From assembly GCA_963724205.1 (NCBI GenBank), contig CAVRTK010000004.1, positions 303,830 to 367,829 on the forward strand: a DNA stretch of 64,000 nucleotides. The letters are read 5' to 3'. A program made the translations under genes and the position numbers. Each line of letters opens with the position of its first letter. Position 1 is the stretch's first letter. This DNA comes from an uncultured Actinomycetes bacterium. GTDB lineage: Bacteria; Actinomycetota; Thermoleophilia; Solirubrobacterales; Thermoleophilaceae. Positions 3,897-35,954 of the stretch are shown in pieces. The notes under the pieces were generated by a model that saw only the letters and a program-made list of their open reading frames with translations, did no database searches and was not told the origin of the DNA.

Positions 3897-6726
3897 TTCG
3901 CCGCCAGCCAGTTGTCGCCGGTGCCGAAGTCGACGGCCAGCGGCGGGTCCAGGTCGTAGGCGGCGATCATCTCCCGGCAGACGATCTCGGCCGACCTGAT
4001 CGGCCTCGGCCTCGGGCGCCTCGAACAGCAGCTCGTCGTGGATCTGGAGGACGAGCCGCGCCTGGAGCCCCGCGTCGGCGACCGCCCGGCGCGAGCGGAC
4101 CATCGCCACCTTGATGATGTCGGCCGCCGTGCCCTGGATGACCGTGCTGATCGCCAGCCGCTCGCCGAGCAGGCGGGTCTGGCGCTGGCGAGCGCGCAGC
4201 TCGGGGATGCGGCGCATGCGGCCGAACAGCGTCTTGACGTAGCCGTTCTCCTTGGCGAACTCGATCGTCGACTCGATCAGCTCGTTGACCTTCGGGAAGC
4301 GGCCCAGGTAGCGGTCGATGAACTCCTGCGCCTCGTCCTGGGGGATGTCGAGCCGGTCGGCGAGCCCGTAGGCCGACAGCCCGTAGACGACGCCGAAGTT
4401 GAACATCTTCGCCTTCGACCGCAGCCCGGGGTCGACCTGGTCGGGGGTGACGCCGAACAGCTGGCCGGCGGTGGCCGCGTGCACGTCCTCGCCGCGGGCG
4501 AAGATGTCGCGCAGCACCTGCTCCTCGCTGATGTGGGCCAGGATGCGCAGCTCGACCTGCGAGTAGTCGGCGCGACACGAGCAGGTTGCCGGGCTCGGCG
4601 ATGAAGCACTCGCGGATCTCGCGGCCCAGCTCCGTGCGGATCGGGATGTTCTGCAGGTTCGGGTCGGTGGACGACAGGCGGCCGGTGGTGGTCGCCGTCT
4701 GGTTGAACGTCGTGTGCAGGCGGCCGGTCTTGTCGGAGATCAGCTCGGGCAGCGCGTCGAGGTAGGTCGACTTGAGCTTCGAGTACTCGCGCCACTCCTC
4801 GATCTTGGGGATGATCGGGTGCTCGGAGCGGATCGCCTGGAGCACGCGCGCGTCGGTGCTGAAGCCGGTCTTGCCGCGGCGCTTCTTCGTCAGGTCGAGC
4901 ACGTCGAACAGGACGTGCGAGAGCTGCTGCGGCGACCCGATCGTGAACGGCTCGCCGGCCAGCTCGTGGATCTCGCGACTCGAGCTCGGCGATGCGCGCC
5001 TCGACCTTGGTGGAGATCTCGGCCGAGCCGCCGCGTGTCGAGCTTCACGCCGTGGCGCTGCATCTCGACGAGCACGTCGACGAGCGGCAGCTCGACCTCG
5101 TCGAACAGCCGGGTCAGCCCCTCCTCCTCGAGCCGCGCGCGCTGGCGCTCGGCGATCACGCGGGTGACGACCGCGCGCTCGGCCAGCTCGTCGCCGCCCT
5201 CGACGTTGGCGGCCAGGCCCTCCTGCTCGGCCAGCTCGCTGCAGCGGGTAGCCGCGCCGCGCCGGGTCGATCAGGTAGGCGGCGACCATCGTGTCGTGCT
5301 CGAGCGGCGGCGCCTGCGACGGGTCCTCGGCGCTGGCGATCGTCTTCCAGTCGTGGGCGACGAGCGGGCGATCGCCCCAGGCGAGCGTGAGCGCGGCGAG
5401 GGTCTCGGCCTCACCGGTCAGGACCTCGGCGCCGCCGTAGGCCGCGAACCTGAGCGTCGGCGCTGCGCAGGCCGCCGTCCTCCTCGCCCAGCGCGAGCTG
5501 AGCGGGCTCGCCCTGCGGAGCGGGCGGGCTGGTCTCGGCCTGCGGCTCCTCGGCGGTCAGCGTCAGCTCGGCGTCGAGCTCCGCGTCCAGGCGCTCGAGC
5601 TCCTCCTCGGCGGCCTCGCCCTCGGCGAGCATCTCGGTCAGCTCCTCCGCGGCCGGCTTGTCGGCCGACGCGCCGGCGGCGGGCTCGGCGCCGTTGCTGC
5701 CGTCCAGCAGCGGGCGCTCGGCGGCGAGCGTCAGCAGCGTTCCGGTCAGGCGGCCGATCTCGGCGGCGGGGACCTCGTGAGCGGTGGCCTCGACGACCTC
5801 GCGAGGCGCGCTCGCGCGGGGCGGCCTCCTCGGCGTCGCCCATCGCCTCCTCCAGCCGGCGCAGCGGGTCGCGCAGCTCGAACTCGCGGAACACCTCGCG
5901 CAGGCGCGCGCGGTCGGGCTCGCGGGCGATCGCGTGATCCAGGTCGACCTCGACGTCGACGTCGCGGACCGCGGTCGCGAGCTTCATCGACATGCGCGCG
6001 TCGTCCGCGTGGTTGGTCAGGTTCTCCTTGCGCTTGGCGCCCGGAGATCTCGTCGATCGACGACAGCACGCCCTCCAGCGACGCCGAACTTCTGGAGCAG
6101 GTCGGACGCGGTCTTGTCGCCGATGCCGGGGACGCCGGGGATGTTGTCGCTGGTGTCGCCCTTCAGGCCGTAGAAGTCGGGGATCAGCTCGGGGCCGATG
6201 CCGTAGCGGTCGATCACGGCCTGCTCGTCGTAGATCTTCGTCTCGGTGATGCCGCGGCTCGTGGCCATCACCTTCACGCCGTCCTCGATCAGCTGGAACA
6301 GGTCGCGGTCGCCGGTGACGACCATGACCTCGATGCCCTTCTCCCGGGCCTGCTTCGTGACGCGTGGCGATGACGTCGTCGGCCTCGTAGCCGGGGACCT
6401 TCACGTTCGTGTAGCCGAACGCGTCGACCAGCGGCTGCATGTGCGGCCACTGCTCGCTGAGCAGGTCGGGGCGCTCGCGCCGGCCGGCCTTGTAGTCCGT
6501 GGAGATCTCGTCGCGGCCGGACATGCCGGCGTCCCAGACGACGAGCGTGGGCTTCGGGCCGTACTCCGTGAGGATCTTCACGAGCATCGACGCGAAGCCG
6601 AAGATCGCGTTGGTCGGGAAAGCCCTTCGAGGTGGCGATCGTCTCGGGGAGCGCGAAGAAGGCGCGGTAGACGAGGCTGTTCCCGTCGATCAGGAACAGC
6701 TCGCGCGGGGATGCTTCAGGCGGCAC
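3893..6726 (-). CDS. polA: DNA polymerase I, with at least five frameshifts
   Basis: 5'-3' exonuclease N-terminus (MPPEASPRELFLIDGNSLVYRAFFALPE; GYEADDVIAT), Klenow-like middle, and polymerase motifs (RRAAKTINFGLVYG-like FGVVYGLSAYGL; LQIHDELLFE) are distributed over at least six ORF fragments in three frames. The C-terminal end ...DFGTGDNWLAAK* is reached only after a 1-nt correction near 3995. Confidence 0.85.
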
Positions 6727-21699: not shown

Positions 21700-22372
21700 C
21701 GCGGGGCGCGGCTCAGGCTCGGGCGGCGCCGGCGGCGCGTGCTCGGCATCGACCTGCTCGACGGCACGGAAGAACGCGGTGAGCTTCGCGTGGTCCTTGC
21801 GGCCGGGCGACGCCTCGGTCCCGCTCGCGGTGTCGACCGCGTACGGATGCGTGGCGTGCGATCGCCGTCGCGCGACGTTGTCCGGGTTCAGGCCGCCGGA
21901 GAGGATCAGCGGCACGTGGCGCGTGTGGTGGCGGACGTAGTCCCACTGGAACGTCTTGCCCGGTGCCGCCGCGCTGCCCGGGCACGTAGGCGTCGAGCAG
22001 GTGGAAGTCGGTGTGGAACGCGCTGAGGCGGCGGACCGCGGCGGGGTCCTTCGCCGGGATCGCCTTGATCACCCGAGCGCCGGTGCGCCGCGCGACCTCG
22101 CGCGCGTACGCGGGACCCTCGTCGCCGTGGAGCTGCACGGCGGTCAGATGAGCGACGTCGGCCAGCTGGGCAACCTCCTCGAGCGGCGCGTTCACGAACA
22201 CGCCCGTGACCTCGACCTGGCGCGACAGCTCGCGCCCGATCCGCTCGGCGTCAGCCACGTCGACCTGCCGCGGGCTGTCGGCGAAGATCAGCCCGACCGC
22301 CCACGCGCCGAGCTCGACGGCGGCCCGCGCGTCGTCGAGGTTGGTGATGCCGCAGATCTTCACGCGCGTCAT
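21700..22372 (-). CDS. trpF: N-(5'-phosphoribosyl)anthranilate isomerase, frameshifted; 3' end uncertain
   Basis: MTRVKICGITNLDDARAAVELGAWAVGLIF...TAVQLHGDE; C-terminal PYAVDTASGTEASPGRKDHAKLTAFFRAVEQ in a second frame. Confidence 0.75.
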
Positions 22373-23689: not shown

Positions 23690-26029
23690 GGCCGGCGGCC
23701 GCGGGGGCAGCGCCAGGAACGCCCGCAGGCGCCCGAGCCGCCCGCCGGACGCCGCCAGCTCGCGGCGCAGCGCGGCGCGGTCGGCGCGGCCGGGCGGCTC
23801 CGACCCCGGTGGACCGTAGCGGCGGGCTCTAAGCGATGCGGCGTAGCGGGCCGCGGCGGGCCCGACGAGCGTGCGCAGGCGGCGCTCCAGCGTGGCCAGC
23901 GTCGTCTGGGGCGGCACGTCGTGGCCCATCCGCCGCAGGGCCGAGCGCAGCTCGGCGAGCTGGGCGTCGGCCGCCGACGCGCGCCGGTGCCGCCGCTCGT
24001 GCAGCACGGAGTAGACCCACAGCCCGGCGACGCCGCACGCGGCCATGAACAGCAGGACGATCGGCAGCATCCAGAGCTTGGCCGATCTGCCGTCGTCGCC
24101 GTTCGCCGAGGCGCCGCCGCCGGCGCCGACGCTCGGCTCCGCGCGGCTCGCCAGACCGCTCGTGCGGTCGCGGCCGCCGCGCGCGGCGCTCGCGTCGTCC
24201 TGCCCGCTCGACTGCGACCCCGCCGGCGACGACGTCGGCGTCGGGTCGAACGGCACCCATCCGATGCCGGCGAAGTAGACCTCGACCCACGAGTGGGCGT
24301 CCAGGTCGCGGACGCGGTACTCCTTGCTCGCCTGGTCGTAGATGCCCGGGCGCGAACCCCGCCGGCGACCCGGGCGGGGATGCCGTTCATCCGCAGCATC
24401 AGCGCCATCGCGCCCGAGAACTGCTGGCAGTAGCCGACCTTGTCCTTGAAGACGAAGTCGCTCAGCGGGTAGGCGCCGGTGGGGACGCGCTCGGAGTAGC
24501 GCAGGTTGTCCTGGAGCCAGCGCTCCGTGGTGCGGACGACGTCGTAGGTCGTCGCCTGGTCACGTGCCAGCCTGCGGGACAGTGCGTACAAGCGCGCGTA
24601 GGGCGACTCGCGGATGTCGCGGACCGTCTCGGCGGTTGTAGATGCCGCCGGTGGGCTCGCCGCGGAACGGCATCATCACGCGGTCGTCCTCGGCCAGCGG
24701 GCGGCGGCGCAGCTCTCCCGGCGCGAGCGTCGATCGCGTTCTCGCCCGGCCTCGGCAGGGAGAACGAGACGTAGCTGCGCAGCGCCTCCTCCCACGAGTC
24801 GGGCGCCGCGCGCATCTGGTCCTGGCGTCGGGTCGGGGACATAGGCGCGGATCGAGTACGAGTCGCCCTTCTCCAGCGGGTCGTCGACCAGGCGCACGGT
24901 GCCGTCGGCCGAGGGCAGCGTCGACGCCGATGTCGCCCTCGGTGTCGAAGAACGTGCCGGCGCCGATCAGCAGGTCGCTGCGCAGGTCGCGCACCGTGAA
25001 CGAGATGCGCTTCTCCCACGCGGGGTTCAGACGGTCGGGCAGCTCCGCGCCGACCGTCCTGCGCTCGCCGGAGTTGGAGTGCGACCAGCGCAGGCCGTCG
25101 AACTCGTCGAGCGTCTCCGCCTTCCAGTAGTGCGGCTCGTCGGAGCGCACGGCCAGCAGCGTGCGGCCGCTGCGCGGCCAGTCGATCGGGCCGTAGCGGT
25201 GGTTCCAGTCGAAGCGCGACCGTCGCGTGGCGCTTGCCGCCGATCGCCCAGTCGGTGTAGTCGACCCAGGCGCGATCGGAGTCGAGCGCCGCCGCCACCG
25301 GCATCGCGAACAGCCCGGCGAGCGCCAGCGCGGTCGCGCCCGCCAGCGCGCCGCGGCGGCCCAGCGTGCGGCAGCCACAGCCAGGCCGCGATCAGCACCG
25401 AGCAGCAGGAGCGCCGCGGCCGATGTCGCCGCCGAACTTCTGGTCGGTGATCGCGACCGTGTAGAAGGCGACGAGGAGCACGAGCGCGACGGAGTCGAAG
25501 CCGGGCTTCGCCGCGCACGGGCCAGAAGGCCAGCGCCGCGGCCAGGATGAGCACGGGCGGGACCGCCAGCAGGATCGTCAGGCGAACGAAGCCGTCGGGG
25601 CCGCCGTAGGGCCAGGAGACGCGGCGCAGGCCGTCGAAGCCGCGGTCGAGCAGCGCGCCGAAGTCGTCCCAGCGGGCGGGCTTCAGCAGGTCGGCGTCGA
25701 GGCCGATCGCCACCAGCGCCGAAGGCGAGCGCGACCAGCGTCGCGAGCGCTGCGAGGGCGTGCACGGCGGGCCGCGGCAGCGGCGTGCGGCCGAGGACGA
25801 TCAGCACCGCGCCGAGCGCGCAGGCGATCGCCAGCACGCCGACGACGCGGCCGGCCGGAGCGTTGGCGACGAAGCTGGCCCAGTAGGCGGCGCCGAACCC
25901 GGCCAGTGCGGCGAAGGCGGCCAGCCGGAGCCAGGGCCCGTGGATTGGCTGATGGGCTGATTGGCTGGTTGGCGCTCGGGCTCGGCGCCAGTCCGCCAGT
26001 CCGCCGATGCGCGCGGTGCCCGCGGTCAC
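23690..26029 (-). CDS. transglutaminase-family protein (TgpA-like: DUF3488 N-terminal membrane region plus transglutaminase core), heavily frameshifted
   Basis: N-terminal multi-TM region (WLRLAAFAALAGFGAAYWASF...; DUF3488-like ILLAVPPVLILAAALAFWP). C-terminal transglutaminase-like core (...KDKVGYCQQFSGAMALMLRMNGIPARVAGG). Directly downstream of DUF58 and moxR. Confidence 0.75.
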
Positions 26030-26196
26030 GCCGCGACCCTCCTCCTCCCGGCGCGCTCGCCGATCCGGTACGCGTGGCAGCCCGCGACCGCGAACGCGGC
26101 CGGCCGCCCCTCGATCCGCTCCGGCGTCACCAGGATAGCGCGCGCCCGCCGCGGCCCGGGCCAGCCCGGGCGGCGCGGCGGCCGCCGCCATCGCCG

Positions 26197-27121
26197 TCAC
26201 CCAGAGGATCGCGCCGAGCCGCTCGAGCCGGCCCGCGAACGGCGCGCGCGTCGCCCGGCCTCGATCAGCGCCAGGCGGACGTGCTGCTGCGGCCAGGAGC
26301 GCAGCTCGGGGTCGACCTCGGTCGGCCGGCGGTCGCCGGGCAGGAGCAGCGAGCAGCCGCCCGAGCGGGCCAGGTAGACGGTGAGCGACGCGGCCGCGCG
26401 GACGGCGGCGTCGAGCGCCTCCTCGCTGGCGGGCCGCCGCGTGTCGAGCACGACCAGCGGCCGCGAGTCGGCGTCGGCCACGAGCCGGCGCTCCATCATC
26501 GTCCCGGTGCGCGCGACGGTCGGCCAGTGGATGCGCGAGGCGGGCGCGCCCTCGCGGTACGGGCGCAGCGAGTCGAGCTCCAGCTCGGCGCCCTGGACCG
26601 CCAGGGCCGAGCCGTCGGTCTGCACGCCATGCCCGCCCGACGCCCGGTCGCCGACCGCGGTGGGCGGCTCGATCCGCGGCAGCACGAGCAGCTCGGCCGG
26701 CTCGGCGTAGACGTTGCGCTCGGCCAGGCCGAGCGGGTCGCGGATGCTGAGCCGCGTCGGCTCGAGCCAGCGGCGGCCGCGGCGGCCGAAGCGCACCTCG
26801 ATCCGCACGCGGCGCGCGCCTCGCCGAGGGCGGGGAGCGGCTGCGACAGCAGCGGCTCGACGACCTCGCCGCCGGGCGGCGGCAGCAGGCCGCGCGTGAC
26901 CTCCAGGTGCACGGGCAGGGGCTGCTCCTCCTCGATCGCGCGGGCGTCGAGCCGGCGCGTCAGCCCGGCGCCGCGGGCGGCCAGCGCCACCCAGGCCGCC
27001 GACGCCGACGCCGAGCAGGATGAACGCGACGCCCGGGCACGTAGAGCGACGGCGAGTCGAACGCGGCGGCCGTGAGCGTCAGGAGGAGTCCGAAGAGCGC
27101 GGCGAGGAACGCGCGGCTCAT
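26197..27121 (-). CDS. DUF58 domain protein (VWA-like partner of MoxR), frameshifted
   Basis: Start MSRAFLAALFGLLLTLTAAAF (TM helix); the ATG at 27121 is 2 nt from the moxR stop. DUF58 body (...DSLRPYREGAPASRIHWPTVARTG...PLVVLDTRRPAS). Confidence 0.75.
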
Positions 27122-27123
27122 GG

Positions 27124-28081
27124 CTACAGCGCCGGGACTCGCTCGAGGACGTCGCGGACGACGTCGGCGCGGCTCGTCCCGGCGGCCTCGGGAGCGAGCA
27201 GCAGCCGGTGGGTCAGCACCGCCGGGCGCGAGCGCCTGCACGTCGTCGGGCAGCGCGTGGTCGCGGCCCTCGAGCGCGGCGCAGCGCCTTCGCCGCCTTG
27301 AGCAGCATGAGCCCCGCGCGCGGCGAGGCGCCGAGCTCGGTGCGCGGGTCGCTGCGCGTCCCCTCGAGCAGCGCGACGACGTAGCGGCGCAGCGGCTCGC
27401 TGGCGTGCACCCGGCCGGCGGCGATCTGCGCGGCCAGCACCTCGGCGACGTCCGGCGACCGGCTCGAGATCGAGCACGCGGTCGCCGCGCGGCGTGCTCG
27501 GCGAGCATCTCGACCTCGGCGTCCGGCCCGCGGGTAGCCGAGCGACACGCGCACCATGAAGCGGTCGAGCTGCGCCTCGGGCAGCGGGTAGGTGCCCTCG
27601 TACTCGACCGGGTTCTGGGTGGCGACGACGAGGAACGGGCGGGCCAGCTCGTGCGAGTGGACGTCGACGGTGACGCGCCGCTCCTGCATGCACTCGAGCA
27701 GGCCGGACTGCGTCTTGGGCGACGCGCGGTTGATCTCGTCGACCAGGACGATGTTCGCGAACACCGGGCCCGGGCCGGAACTCGAAGCGGCTCTCGCGCT
27801 GGTTGAAGACGTTGGTGCCGACCACGTCGGAGGGCAGCAGGTCGGCGGTCGCCTGGATGCGCGCGTACTCGGCGTCGACCGAGCGGGCGAGCGCGCGGGC
27901 CAGGGCGGTCTTGCCGACGCCCGGGTAGTCCTCGATCAGGACGTGGCCCTCGGCGACCAGCGCGACGATCACCTCGCGCAGCACGCGCGGCGTCGACCTT
28001 GACGGCCGCGCCGACGTTGGCGGCGATGCGCTCGCCGAGCGCGGCGACGCCGGCAGGGTCGAGCTCAGGGACCGTCGACAT
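27124..28081 (-). CDS. moxR: MoxR-family AAA+ ATPase, frameshifted
   Basis: [11 protein letters not shown]...[31 protein letters not shown] (Walker A); [19 protein letters not shown] (Walker B/sensor); [25 protein letters not shown]. Three frames. Confidence 0.85.
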
Positions 28082-28189
28082 CTCCCATGGCATGGTACGT
28101 GGCCGTGGGCTCACGCGGCTTGCCGGTCCTGGGTGGCCAGTTCCCGCCGCCCGTCACCCGCGGCCTCGTCTACATTTCATCGGTTCTGT

Positions 28190-30930: not shown

Positions 30931-31375
30931 TCAGGCGCGCTCGGCGGCCTCGACGGCGCTGCCGAGCGCTGCCAGATCGTCGCCCGTCAGCCGCTCCTCC
31001 AGCAGCACGAACAGGTGGCGCTCCTCATAACGGACGTGCGCGGCCAGAAGCTCGCCCAGCTCGCGAGCCGCGTCCGGGGACACGCCGGGCGGTGAGGCCA
31101 GCAACGCCTCGGCGCGCGCCCGGATGTCACCGTGCTCGCGGCGGACCCGGTCGCTCGCCTCGCGCCAGTCGGGGTCGTCGCTCCGGCAACGCGGGCAGCA
31201 GGATCGCCTCCTCGATCCCGAAGTGCCGCTCGCCCGCGCCGCGCCAGAACTCGCCGAAGCGCGCAACGGCCGCGGCGACGGTGTCCGGGTCGGCCCGGCG
31301 CAGGCGCAGCGCCGCCTCGAGCGCCACGTGGTGGTCGCGCGAGAGCGGCGCCAGCTCGGGCGACCGCTTCACGGC
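30931..31375 (-). CDS. hemerythrin HHE cation-binding domain protein, frameshifted
   Basis: N-terminal part (LSRDHHVALEAALRL...HFGIEEAILLPAL) and C-terminal part (REHGDIRARAEALL...HVRYEERHLFVLLEERL) in two frames. H/E-rich helices typical of the hemerythrin-like di-iron fold. Confidence 0.65.
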
Positions 31376-31376
31376 C

Positions 31377-32194
31377 TCAGCTCTCGCGGTCGGGCACGCG
31401 CGACAGCTCCACGTGCCCGTTGGGCTGCTCGGCCGTTGCCGCCGGCGCCGACACGCGGTCAAGGAACGGCTGGAGCAGGTCGAGCGGCAGCGGGAACACG
31501 ATCGTCGAGTTCTGCTCGGCGCCGATCTCGAGCAGCGTCTGGAGGTAGCGCAGGTGCAGCGCCGACGGCTCGCGGCCGATGATCGCCGCGGCGTCGGCCA
31601 GCTTCTCGGCGGCCTGGAACTCGCCCTCGGAGTTGATGATCTTGGCCCGTCGCTCGCGCTCCGCCTCGGCCTGGCGGGCCATCGCCCGCTGCATCGCCTC
31701 GGGGATCTCGACGTCCTTGATCTCGACGGTCGAGACCTTGATCCCCCACGGCTCGGTCTGCTCGTCGATGATCTGCTGCAGATCCTCGTTCAGGCGCTCG
31801 CGCTCGGACAGCAGCTGGTCGAGGTCGGCGCGCCCGAGCACCGAGCGCAGCGTCGTCTGCGCGATCTGCGACGTGGCCGGCTCGAACGCCTCGATCTCCG
31901 TGACCGCGGCGACCGGATCGATCGCCTTGAAGTAACAGACGGCCGCGACGCGTGCCGGGACGTTGTCGCGCGTGATCACCTCCTGCGGCGGGATCGTGAG
32001 CGTGACGGTGCGCAGGTCGACGCGCACCATCCGGTCGACCAGCGGGATCAGCAGCACCAGGCCCGGGCCCCTTGACCGGCAGCAGGCGCCCGAGGCGGAA
32101 CACGACCGCGCGCTCGTACTCGCGCAGGACGCGGATGCTGACGAGCGCCGCCAGCAGCACCACCAGGACGAGGCGCAGCGAGGACGTAGATCAT
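31377..32194 (-). CDS. SPFH/band-7 (stomatin/prohibitin-like) membrane protein, two 1-nt indels near the 5' end
   Basis: AGGAGG RBS 10 nt upstream of the ATG at 32194. After removing one base about 32160 and one about 32055 it reads [65 protein letters not shown]...; the coiled-coil tail [25 protein letters not shown] is typical of the family. Confidence 0.8.
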
Positions 32195-32699
32195 CGGAAG
32201 GGTGCCTCCTGGTTCGACGCATGCGCAACCCGTGCGAAGGCGTGGGCTCCGGGAAGCCCGCCGGATGCGCACGCAGGTCGCGCAGCATCCAGCGGCCCAC
32301 CCCAAGCATGACCGCGATCAGCGCCAGCAACAACGCGGCTTCGGCGGGATCGTGGTTTCTCACGCCGCCCACCGTCAGGACGAAGACCGCCAGCGCCAGC
32401 AGCATCAGGGCGATCCCGCGGTGGAAGCGCCCCGCCTCGGAGTGCGGCCACGGGTCGAGCGGGCGCACGATCTCGCGACCCACGTCCGAGTCCGTGCACC
32501 TGTCCTTGCGCGGGCACCCGTTGCAGATGTGGGCCTTCGCCCGGTAGCGGACCAGCCGGCGCTCGTGGTCGAACTCGTGGGGCCACAGGTGCTGGCCCTC
32601 CGGGCACGTCCAGTGGTCGTGCACGTCGTCGTAGTCAAAGCCCGCCGTCCGGAACCGAAGCGCCCGCCGGTGCGTGTGCGCCGACAGCCACTCGAGCAT
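32195..32699 (-). pseudogene. chimeric ORF: IS1182/IS5-type transposase zinc-ribbon fragment followed by two hydrophobic segments (transposase remnant)
   Basis: [19 protein letters not shown]...[32 protein letters not shown] matches the F.YD...D.Y.CP.G..L ... YRA....C..CPL...CT.S..GR.I.R signature of the internal region of IS1182-type DDE transposases. No DDE domain is present. Its frame runs into the SPFH gene. Confidence 0.4.
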
Positions 32700-32756
32700 G
32701 AGCGCCGCCAGCAGCAGGAAGCACGCCGTAGCCCGCGAACAGGAGGGCCTCCCCGC

Positions 32757-35094
32757 TCATGTGGTGGTCCTGGCCGCCGTGGCTCCGCTGTCGCCTGCCG
32801 CGCCCACGCCCGCCGGCTCGGTGATGTCGGTGAACAGGATGTCCTCCGGCTCCTCGAGCGTGACCCGCTTGACCGTGTGGCGTATGCCGACGAACGCGAT
32901 GTAGAGCACGGGCACCGCCCCGGCGCCGATGAAGATCATGTCGCCCGGCAGGCGCAGCCATTCGATCAGGGTGTTCGTGTCGTTGGTCAGGAACTCGAGC
33001 TCGACGCGCTTCCCAGTAGCCGTCGCCGACCGACTTGTAGAGCTGGAGGATGCCGAGCGGCAGGAGCGTGGCGAAGCACATCCACGCCAGCCCGAGGTTG
33101 GTCCCCCAGAACGCGATCCGGGCCCACTTCTCCGGCCATCTCTCGGCGGGGATCAGGTAGCGCAGGCAGAACATCGCGAGCCCGATCGCGAGCATGCCGT
33201 AGACGCCCATCATCGCGGCGTGGCCGTGGTTCGCCGTGAGCGCGGTGCCGATCTCGTAGTACGAGACGATCGGCAGGTTGATGAGGAAGCCGAAGATGCC
33301 GGCGCCGAGGAAGTTCCAGAACCCGACCGCGACGAGGAACATGACCGCCCAGCGGTGCGGGAACGGCGTCTTCGACCTGGACTCCTGCGCCGCGCCGAGC
33401 TGCAGGAACGACCACGCCTCGACGGTCAGGAACGTCAGCGGGATCACCTCGGCGGCCGAGAAGAACGCGCCGAGCGCCATGTGCTCGGCGGGCTCGCCGG
33501 AGAAGTACAGGTGGTGCATCGTGCCGATCACGCCGCCCGCCGAGTAGAGGAGGATGTCGAGGAACACGACGGTCAGGGCCACGCGCTCGCGGACGACTCC
33601 GAGCAGCACGAACATGTAGGCGACCATCACGGTCGTGAACAGCTCGAGGAAGTCCTCGACCCAGAGGTGGACGACCCAGAAGCGCCAGAACTCCGTGACC
33701 GTGAAGTGGTCGCCGGTGCGCGCGATCAGGCCCACGGCGTAGAAGGCCGGTATCGCCAGCGCGGCCAGGAAGAACAGCCACGGCATGTTGGTCGGGTGCT
33801 CGGCCTTGAGCCGGCCGCGCAGGACGCGGAACAGCATGAAGACCCAGACGAACAGGCCGATCGACAGCAGCACCTGCCAGATGCGCGCCAGGTCCAGGTA
33901 CTCGAAGCCCTGGAGGCCGAACCAGTTGGAGGCAGCGCCCTCCAGCACGCCGTGCACGCCGAGGAACGAGCCGATCAGCGTCCCGAACACGACGACGGCC
34001 AGCGCGCCGAGCAGCGCAAAGGCGAGCTTGCCCTGATGCTTCGGCTCGCGCCGCGCGATCATCGGCGCGAGGAAGATCCCGGCCGCGACGAACGCGGTGG
34101 CCACCCAGAACAACGCGAGCTGCACGTGCCAGGTGCGCATCAGGTTGTAGGGGAAGACCGCGGCCAGGTCGAAGCCGAAGAAGTCGGTGAGGTCGGCCCG
34201 GTAGTGCTGTGACGCCGCTCCGACCATCGTCTGGATCAGGAACAGCGCGGACATCGTGAAGAAGAACCAGGCGGTCGCCCGCTGGGCGGGGGTGAGCGCG
34301 ACGTCGCCGGGCTCGCGGAACGACAGCGTGGCCTGCTCGCGGCCGTGCCAGCCGAGGAAGTTCCAGCGTCCGAAGGCCCCGAACAGGAGGCCGATGCCGC
34401 CCAGCAGCGCGATCAGCGACAGGACCGACCAGACGACGACGTTGGCCGTCGGCTTGTTGTCGACGCGCGGCTCCGACGGCCAGTTGTTCGTGTACGAGTA
34501 GTCGTGGCCGGGACGCTCGGCGGCGGATGCCCAGGCGGTCCAGCCGAAGAACGCGGTGAGCTGCGCGAGCTCTCTGCGATCGGTGATCGCCTTCTTGCGC
34601 AGGCCGTTCTTGGTCGTGGGCTCGGCGAAGAAGCGCGAGTAGTAGGCCACCAGGCGGCGGTGGGCCGCGGCCTGCGGCGCCGTCAGCGTGAGCGTGCCGG
34701 TGCGCTCGTCGTAGCGGTTGGTGCGGAAGTCATCGATCGTCCGCCGCGCGGCGCTGTCCGACCGCGCGCCGCCGTACGAGCGCTTCACGAAGTCGGACGA
34801 CCGGCGGAGGTAGTCCGCGGTGAAGTCCGGGCCCAGGTAGGCGCCGTGACCGAAGGCGGAGCCGTACTCCATCAGCCCGTTGTGCAGGAACACCTGCTGG
34901 CCCTTCGAGACGTCGTTCTTCGTGTAGACGACCCGGCCCTGCTGGTCGACGACGCGGTCGGGGATCGGCGGCTTGGCGTCGTAGGTGCGGTACGCGAGCA
35001 GGCCGAGCACGAAGAACCCGAAGAGGACCACGAGCAGGACTGCCTGCACCCAACCCTTCGCGATCAACATCTGACGCCGGCCGGAGCTCTCCAC
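32757..35094 (-). CDS. norZ: nitric-oxide reductase, quinol-dependent large subunit (qNOR), one frameshift near the 3' end
   Basis: 779-aa heme-copper-oxidase-like body with an N-terminal periplasmic extension. Conserved His ligands (HLYFSGEP; ANHGHAAMMGVYGML). Real C-terminus MIFIGAGAVPVLYIAFVGIRHTVKR... in a second frame (ORF 32757–32939). Confidence 0.9.
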
Positions 35095-35144: not shown

Positions 35145-35954
35145 CTACGTCAGGCCTGCGTCGGCTCTTCCGAGCCCGACAGCTCGCGCACCGCGGCCTC
35201 GGGATCGGGCGCCCGCATCACGGTCTCGCCGATCAGGACGGCGTCGACGCCGACGCGCTCCAGCTCCTCGATCTGCGCGCGGTTCTGGATGCCGGACTCC
35301 GACACGACGGTCTTGCCGGCGGGGACGTCGGTCAGCAGCTCGTAGGTCGTCTCGAGCGAGACCGTGAAGTCGACCGAGGTCGCGGTTGTTGATCCCGACC
35401 ACGTCGCAGTCGATCTCGAGCGCGCACTCGAGCTCCTCCTCGTCGTGCACCTCGACGATCGCGTCCAGGTCGAGGTCGTCGGCGATCGCGTGCAGCTCGC
35501 CGAGGTCGCGGACCTTCAGCGACCCGACCACCAGCAGAACCGCGTCCGCGCCGTACGCCTTGGCCTCGTACAGCTGGTACGGGTCGATCGTGAAGTCCTT
35601 GCGCAGGATCGGCAGGTCGGTCGCCGCCCGCGCCTCGCGCAGGTCCTCGAGCGACCCGCCGAAGTGGCGCTCCTCGGTGAGGATCGACAGCGCCGCCGCG
35701 CCGCCGCGGTCGTAGGCCCGGACCACGTCGGCCACGCTCGCGTCCGGCCGGATGTCGCCCGCGGAGGGGGAGCGCCGCTTGTACTCGGCGATCACCGACG
35801 TCCACGGCCGGGACAGGGCCTCCGAGAACGGCCTGCCCTCGAGCGTCATGCGCTGCTCGATCGCGCGCTCGAGCTCGGCGAGCGGGCGCTCGCGCTTGAC
35901 GCGGTCCAGCCGGTCGCGCGTCGAGTCGATCAGGTCGTCGAGCCGTATCGCCAT
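35145..35954 (-). CDS. trpC: indole-3-glycerol-phosphate synthase, C-terminal frameshift about 35390
   Basis: RPFSEAL...VIAEYKRRSPSAGDI; ALSILTEERHFGGSLEDL; LPILRKDFTIDPYQLYEA; VGINNRDL. Confidence 0.85.
   Translation of the reverse strand: MAIRLDDLIDSTRDRLDRVKRERPLAELERAIEQRMTLEGRPFSEALSRPWTSVIAEYKRRSPSAGDIRPDASVADVVRAYDRGGAAALSILTEERHFGGSLEDLREARAATDLPILRKDFTIDPYQLYEAKAYGADAVLLVVGSLKVRDLGELHAIADDLDLDAIVEVHDEEELECALEIDCDVVGINNRDLGRLHGLARDDLRAADRRPRRQDRRVGVRHPEPRADRGAGARRRRRRPDRRDRDAGARSRGRGARAVGLGRADAGLT

Follow-up and report, generated by a model that had tools for sequence, protein, structure and literature searches.

A Cys4 membrane protein with a transposase-like domain accompanies norZ in one clade of qNORs

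Does a short reading frame that resembles part of a transposase record the passage of a mobile element, or does it belong to a conserved gene? The question is raised by a locus in a 64,000-nucleotide stretch of DNA (hereafter the window) from an uncultured Actinomycetes bacterium assigned to the Thermoleophilaceae (GenBank assembly GCA_963724205.1, contig CAVRTK010000004.1, positions 303,830 to 367,829). A first-pass annotation, made from the letters alone, singled out a frame at 32195-32699 in which a Cys-rich segment like that of IS1182/IS5-type transposases runs into hydrophobic segments immediately upstream of an SPFH gene. Two explanations were put forward: a decayed insertion sequence (IS) that had mediated the insertion of a block of genes between trpC and trpF, or a domesticated zinc-ribbon membrane protein acting as the partner of the SPFH protein in place of the usual NfeD. 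Our analysis leads elsewhere. Apparent assembly indels aside, the frame is probably an intact member of a widespread family of small inner-membrane proteins that has no name as yet, and it is probably the dedicated partner, within their operon, of a single clade of quinol-dependent nitric oxide reductases (qNOR; gene norZ).

Translation recovered the transposase-like peptides and both hydrophobic stretches quoted in the annotation, all in a single frame on the minus strand, but the limits given for that frame did not stand: homology places the start elsewhere than at ATG 32699 and the stop elsewhere than at 32195. In a tblastn search, residues 12-183 of the homologue P0002 map to 32726-32211 in one frame at 87% identity, and residues 1-11 map to a second frame that begins at an ATG at 32760. 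Homologues, whose N-terminus begins MSxEA(L/V), place the start at the ATG at 32760-32758; this codon and the stop of qNOR overlap as ATGA (32757-32760). The first 13 codons are out of the main frame owing to one extra base near 32721. This frameshift had concealed the true start and an N-terminal membrane helix (helix 1); the two helices reported earlier are present, but the total is three. Downstream, no stop codon closes the raw frame at 32195; it reads through into the SPFH frame and ends at 31377, giving an ORF of 440 residues. Homology puts the end of the gene at the TGA at 32191-32193, overlapping the SPFH ATG; the closest homologue terminates in ...RTGGTFR, and its TGA likewise overlaps an SPFH ATG. 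To reach this codon in the window, two further extra bases near 32200-32210 must be removed. The resulting coordinates are collected in Table 1.

Table 1. Features of the norZ locus in the window, in the order in which they are read on the minus strand.
Feature	Coordinates	Strand	Evidence
qNOR gene (norZ)	32757..35094	-	Pfam NorB_cytochrome_c-like 6e-54, COX1 2e-53; one frameshift near 33003
qNOR C-terminal tail	about 32790-32850	-	Conserved motif, loci L001-L092
Cys4 zinc-ribbon membrane protein gene, ~188 residues, three membrane helices	32191..32760	-	tblastn of P0002 and full-length homologues
Membrane helix 1	32680..32754	-	AlphaFold2 helix, residues 3-37, pLDDT >90; one face conserved
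Cys4 zinc-ribbon-like domain	32439..32648	-	NF033551 partial match, four invariant Cys, predicted beta strands
Cys codons of the Cys4 domain	32604-32606, 32523-32525, 32514-32516, 32496-32498	-	Read in the window
Membrane helix 2, conserved RFHR motif just before	32361..32417	-	AlphaFold2 helix, residues 108-134
Membrane helix 3, hydrophobic, sequence not conserved	32286..32342	-	AlphaFold2 helix, residues 138-164
SPFH/Band-7 gene, optional third operon gene	31377..32194	-	Pfam Band_7 2.8e-34; two frameshifts near 32175 and 32070
Hemerythrin-domain gene, fourth on the strand	30931..31372	-	Pfam Hemerythrin positions 7-66 and 63-126 on two overlapping ORFs

Proteins that match the whole of this gene product are abundant. 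A search among 5.8 billion proteins returned 2543 matches; the best 120 share 65-89% identity with the query, mostly over 96-100% of its length, and are 183-212 residues long (mostly 183-205), save for one 276-residue artefact (P0001). An exhaustive profile search over 50%-identity representatives gave 1184 clusters with an E-value below 1e-3, of which 369 were also below 1e-10, and members of the family are about 170-205 residues in length. Those members that carry a taxon name belong to Solirubrobacteraceae, Terriglobia and Verrucomicrobiota, and matches to genomes fall in Thermoleophilaceae, Gaiellaceae, Paraconexibacteraceae and Acidimicrobiales, among them Thermoleophilia that include Solirubrobacterales. 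Source annotations label these proteins as hypothetical or, wrongly, as "Transposase DDE domain". Cluster look-ups yielded only "hypothetical protein" names and metagenome-assembled genomes, with no cultured organism seen. No curated family in Pfam or NCBIfam covers the whole protein, transposase models alone being returned, and the literature searched contained neither a description of the family nor a paper linking PF13751 with nitric oxide reductases. The plasmid collection yielded no full-length member, only transposase matches to the Cys segment.

Conservation within the family is concentrated in two places, one face of helix 1 and the Cys domain. Among 107 diverse members, with identities down to about 32%, residues F41, C52, Y72, C79, C82 and C88 are invariant, and the window translation carries all six. 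The four Cys follow a fixed pattern (one in C-P-x-G, then C-x-x-C, then a fourth), each present in 100% of these members. On helix 1, Y11, L15 and A19 are conserved at 97%, 96% and 90% and define a single face. The RFHR motif (R111, F112, H113, R114) is kept in 86-94% of members, and G40, D48, W50, L58, N80, K85, T89, G94-R95 and W104 are also highly conserved; for helices 2 and 3, only hydrophobicity is kept across the family. Prediction with AlphaFold2 from the 107-sequence alignment (pLDDT 91.7, pTM 0.78) gives three long helices and a beta-rich Cys domain, with strands at 42-44, 49-51, 57-64, 69-73 and 96-100 (pLDDT >90). An alignment of only 11 close homologues had given a poor Cys domain (pLDDT 65), which the deeper alignment cured. 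Fold searches with the predicted model produced no zinc-ribbon match, their results being dominated by the helices, and a profile search against PDB sequences gave nothing significant. Because arginine-rich stretches lie on both sides of the Cys4 domain and again after helix 3, the positive-inside rule would have the domain face the cytoplasm.

The likeness to transposases that drew attention to this locus is real and well above chance. NCBIfam NF033551, the model for IS1182 family transposases, is matched at E=4.1e-12 over positions 346-422 of 488, with 45.8 bits against a cutoff of 270, and Pfam PF13751 (DDE_Tnp_1_6) is matched over positions 1-52 of 125, with 25.3 bits against a cutoff of 25.1. 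By BLASTP, P0002 shares 42% identity over 62 residues (E=2e-12) with a transposase that is annotated as IS1182 on a Microvirga plasmid, and all four Cys align. In the annotated IS1182 transposase, the corresponding segment lies inside the DDE domain, with PF01609 and PF13751 matched over residues 126-364. A tblastn search of plasmids hit seven records, in each case with the Cys segment only; six of the hits lie under annotated transposase genes, three of them named IS1182 family. Each of the 107 diverse members matches NF033551, always partially, which makes the transposase-like module a property of the whole family.

The first-pass annotation was also right that the N-terminal DNA-binding part and the catalytic DDE part are missing. 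Nothing is matched before NF033551 position 346, where a conserved membrane helix stands in place of the DNA-binding region; PF01609 is unmatched, and the match to PF13751 lacks the rest of the model, including its final acidic residue. What the family shares with IS1182 transposases is a homologous Cys4 segment of about 60-75 residues (F-x-Y...C-P-x-G...Y-R-A...C-x-x-C...C-T...G-R). Unlike those enzymes, its members have no DNA-binding region, DDE residues or inverted repeats, are one-third as long and carry the Cys4 segment between conserved membrane helices; the genes examined occupy one fixed place behind norZ, as opposed to being scattered in repeated copies. As judged from sequence comparison, IS1182 transposases have the homologue of the Cys4 domain as a Cys-rich insertion within their DDE domain. 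An ancient recruitment of the module from a transposase is probable; the alternative is a common ancestor with the transposase domain.

The genomic position of the family is also conserved. The family profile led to 80 species-level genomes and an exact look-up to two further contigs; in all 82 of these loci the gene immediately upstream, on the same strand, encodes qNOR. The same holds for 10 of 10 loci with distant members (31-49% identity), including one Terriglobia and one Verrucomicrobiota genome. Across these related loci, 88 of 92 have a 4-nt overlap between the qNOR stop and the start of the partner gene, as does the window. The association was also recovered in reverse: 80 metagenome loci were fetched with a qNOR protein query alone (65-87% identity), and the zinc-ribbon gene directly follows in 72 of the 73 that had enough downstream sequence. 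The lone exception, L169, has no zinc-ribbon gene downstream (4789-5900), and its qNOR keeps the tail motif as VLFAE; gene loss, relocation or an assembly problem may account for this locus. Genes beyond the pair differ from locus to locus, the pair is found in unrelated genomic contexts, and trpC adjoins it in this window only. The neighbors are often related to nitric oxide stress (Crp/Fnr-type regulator, ScdA/hemerythrin, YgbA_NO). On the grounds of gene order, the conserved partner of the small protein is the upstream norZ and not the SPFH gene.

The enzyme itself is a normal qNOR. The window copy has the active-site motifs HLWVE and HHLYF, and a close intact homologue matches solved qNOR structures with E=3e-158. 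In addition, all 92 linked qNORs share a conserved C-terminal tail motif (...EPxDILFT(E/D)...), located about 15-20 residues past the last membrane helix and retained across phyla. A phmmer comparison of this tail with the tails of three solved qNORs detected no similarity, although this is a weak test. We regard the motif as a candidate docking site for the partner protein. Natural fusions of qNOR with the zinc-ribbon protein were considered as evidence of interaction and set aside, in that the candidates (P0121, P0212, P0227, P0235 and others) look like frameshifted calls from noisy assemblies. P0001 (276 aa) and other long matches, in which qNOR C-termini or duplicated segments are joined to the zinc-ribbon protein, similarly look like products of frameshifted or mis-assembled contigs and not natural fusions.

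How might the two proteins work together? What the family retains across phyla is one face of helix 1, the Cys4 domain and a single translational unit with norZ. We envisage that the products of the two genes are made together via translational coupling and that, within the membrane, the small protein uses the conserved side of helix 1 to pack against NorZ. The Cys4 domain, putatively metal-binding, would then be placed at the cytoplasmic face, where it may dock on the conserved cytoplasmic tail of NorZ (...EPxDILFTE...). The small protein could be an extra structural subunit or a factor for the maturation or metal handling of the enzyme; an accessory subunit or maturation factor of qNOR appears to be its most likely role. 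A more specific proposal, possible but tentative, is that the qNORs of this large clade, which belong to bacteria abundant in soil (Thermoleophilia, Acidobacteriota, Verrucomicrobiota), would not be single-subunit enzymes and would instead depend on a second membrane subunit, or on a maturation factor of their own, with a cytoplasmic Cys4 domain recruited from an IS1182-type transposase and docked on a clade-specific NorZ tail.

Several observations weigh against a physical partnership of this kind. Gene order and coupling also fit a functional link in which the proteins make no contact. qNOR has been described as free of helpers in the insertion of its non-heme iron, with a gene cluster that consists of norZ only (PMC12067857). 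L169 belongs to the same qNOR clade and lacks such a gene downstream, and the window copy, with its three apparent indels, could be a pseudogene here. Thermoleophilia sequences had suggested a histidine-rich metal chaperone; we have downgraded this idea, since across the family H113 is conserved at 86% and H30 and H28 only weakly, at 73% and 59%, and the other histidines of Thermoleophilia members are not kept. This weakens the simple metal-chaperone version of the model.

If the proteins are linked only through shared regulation, the small protein could be a membrane protein that responds to nitric oxide or redox state outside the enzyme, its Cys4 site being modified by nitric oxide or oxidants, and its signaling or protective action needing no NorZ. 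Nitrosative and oxidative stress are known to act on Cys4 zinc sites, and the nitric oxide stress neighborhoods of the pair (hemerythrin, YgbA_NO and Crp/Fnr-type regulators) would suit such a role. However, the 4-nt overlap with norZ, together with the outcome of the reverse test, is tighter than ordinary co-regulation. The Pfam scan found no output domain and the survey of neighbors no conserved regulator partner, and a helix 1 with one conserved face points to a constant partner within the membrane. We consider an independent sensor or protectant unlikely, while allowing it some weight.

A partnership with NorZ would have parallels among the accessory proteins of NORs and oxidases. Like NorE, NorF, NorH of the Thermus cNOR, the NorQ/NorD iron-insertion chaperones, and CcoQ and CcoS of cbb3 oxidases, the small protein is encoded directly behind the catalytic gene and predicted to reside in the same membrane (see also PMC12067857), and by analogy it could plausibly act as an extra subunit or maturation factor. 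Two features set it apart from all of these: none of them is known to have a Cys4 zinc-ribbon domain, and the enzyme that it accompanies, qNOR, has been described as one-gene and chaperone-independent (PMC12067857). Searches of Pfam and NCBIfam, libraries that may or may not include models for NorF and NorH, detected no sequence similarity to NorQ, NorD, NorE, NorF, NorH, CcoQ or CcoS.

The frameshifts in the window raise the separate possibility that the zinc-ribbon and SPFH genes are recently inactivated pseudogenes in this genome and that the family is functional elsewhere. The density of lesions is what favors decay: within about 660 nt, the zinc-ribbon gene has gained three bases and the SPFH gene two, compared with one in the 2.3-kb qNOR gene. 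Yet single-base frameshifts occur in at least eight genes between 21713 and 35954, including those for qNOR, the zinc-ribbon protein, SPFH, hemerythrin, trpC, trpF and a SNF2-type helicase; the IGPS model of trpC is cut at position 192 of 254 and the PRAI model of trpF at position 133 of 193. Since the trp genes are biosynthetic and expected to be intact, since the resolvable indels are single extra bases, some of them beside an identical base, and since the proteins are otherwise undecayed, we read most of the frameshifts as assembly errors. The zinc-ribbon gene in particular has no other sign of decay, given its 87% identity to P0002 and the lack of in-frame stops, and similar artefacts (frameshifted "fusion" proteins) are seen in many related database assemblies. 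The pattern suggests an error-prone assembly and not gene decay, which makes inactivation in this genome an improbable reading of the locus. An ORF-based reading of the window is unreliable.

In the window, norZ, the zinc-ribbon gene, SPFH and hemerythrin form a tightly spaced operon on the minus strand, with the hemerythrin gene, itself split by a frameshift, starting about 5 nt past the SPFH stop. The first-pass annotation had suggested a domesticated zinc-ribbon membrane protein serving SPFH. The membrane protein is there; the partner is another, as SPFH occurs in roughly 10-20% of loci and qNOR in 92 of 92. A small membrane protein gene directly before an SPFH gene is reminiscent of NfeD, and SPFH directly follows the gene in the window and in 17 other loci, often with 1-4 nt of spacing or overlap; the arrangement recurs in several sub-clades, one of them at about 42% identity. 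The pairing is not consistent, however. SPFH lies downstream in 18 of 93 loci chosen via the zinc-ribbon gene, leaving about 80% without it, and in 7 of 72 chosen via qNOR, where it is absent from 65 while qNOR is always present; SPFH-bearing loci are scattered over a few sub-clades of the family tree. The zinc-ribbon family also differs from NfeD in domain content: a Pfam scan of the zinc-ribbon protein returned no NfeD match, the NfeD OB-fold was matched by 0 of 107 members, and NfeD_membrane was matched by one of 107, weakly and at chance level (3e-4). It is very unlikely that the small protein is an SPFH partner that replaces NfeD and that its link to qNOR is incidental.

The hemerythrin gene is likewise variable. 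Of the 92 related loci, 8 contain a close homologue of the window copy, and in distant phyla the pair has other hemerythrin/ScdA genes nearby (L083, L091). We favor the view that SPFH and hemerythrin are optional extras in an operon for nitric oxide defense. A further small hydrophobic ORF lies just after the zinc-ribbon or SPFH gene in about ten loci (L001 5536-5847, L023 7343-7723, L026 6207-6545 and some seven more; also P0132 and P0164), and this recurrent ORF may be another optional operon member.

This leaves the reading in which the frame is a dead piece of an IS1182/IS5-type transposase, joined by chance to hydrophobic sequence and left behind by the element that inserted the genes between trpC and trpF. 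The supposed inserted block, from trpC (35145-35954) to trpF (21713-22372), is an interval of about 12.8 kb with many genes. Between 28500 and 36500, we found no terminal inverted repeats or target-site duplications that bracket the ORF or the cassette; the repeats present there have arms of 20-42 nt with 70-95% complementarity, which is at chance level in DNA of about 72% GC. The composition profile shows no clear island and no marked break (GC 0.67-0.71, versus 0.72-0.75 in the flanks). Although the local similarity to IS1182 is real and the qNOR cassette sits in differing contexts between genomes, with trpC adjacent in this window alone, a decayed IS has almost nothing left to recommend it: a full-length conserved family, an outcome that the annotation itself had named as a refutation, covers the whole ORF, with matches at 70-89% identity over 96-100% of the query; the ORF with its hydrophobic segments and invariant residues is kept in hundreds of clusters from several phyla; just 77 of 488 transposase model positions are matched, far below the cutoff; the flanks hold low-identity chance repeats only; and translational coupling to norZ recurs in 88 of 92 loci.

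What emerges instead is a putative accessory protein that contains, unexpectedly, a transposase-like domain and is attached to a respiratory enzyme thought to be partnerless; the genomic evidence is strong, and the function is what we infer from it. Through qNOR, bacteria are protected from nitric oxide, and the product is the greenhouse gas nitrous oxide; current papers present the enzyme as having one gene and one subunit and as requiring no helper (PMC12067857). In one clade of this enzyme, a small Cys4 membrane protein is nearly inseparable from norZ; the clade is carried by Actinomycetota and Acidobacteriota that are uncultured and come mostly from surveys of soil. Should NorZ and the small protein act jointly, the latter ought to be included when these qNORs are expressed heterologously or studied structurally, annotation should drop the "transposase" or "hypothetical" label for the family, and the question of how qNOR is assembled and acquires its metals would gain a concrete candidate. 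Were the protein a second subunit or dedicated maturation factor, an enzyme that produces nitrous oxide would gain a new component, and bacteria would offer a case in which a sub-domain of a transposase has been reused in a respiratory complex.

The family is a clear example of a transposase-like domain that persists in a cellular membrane protein, and short ORFs with partial matches to PF13751 or NF033551 should not be counted as mobile elements. Elsewhere in the 12.8-kb gap, between trpF and the helicase, the minus strand at 24500-28100 carries what look, from their translations, like genes for a MoxR-type AAA ATPase, for a conserved protein that follows it, and for a membrane protein resembling transglutaminases.
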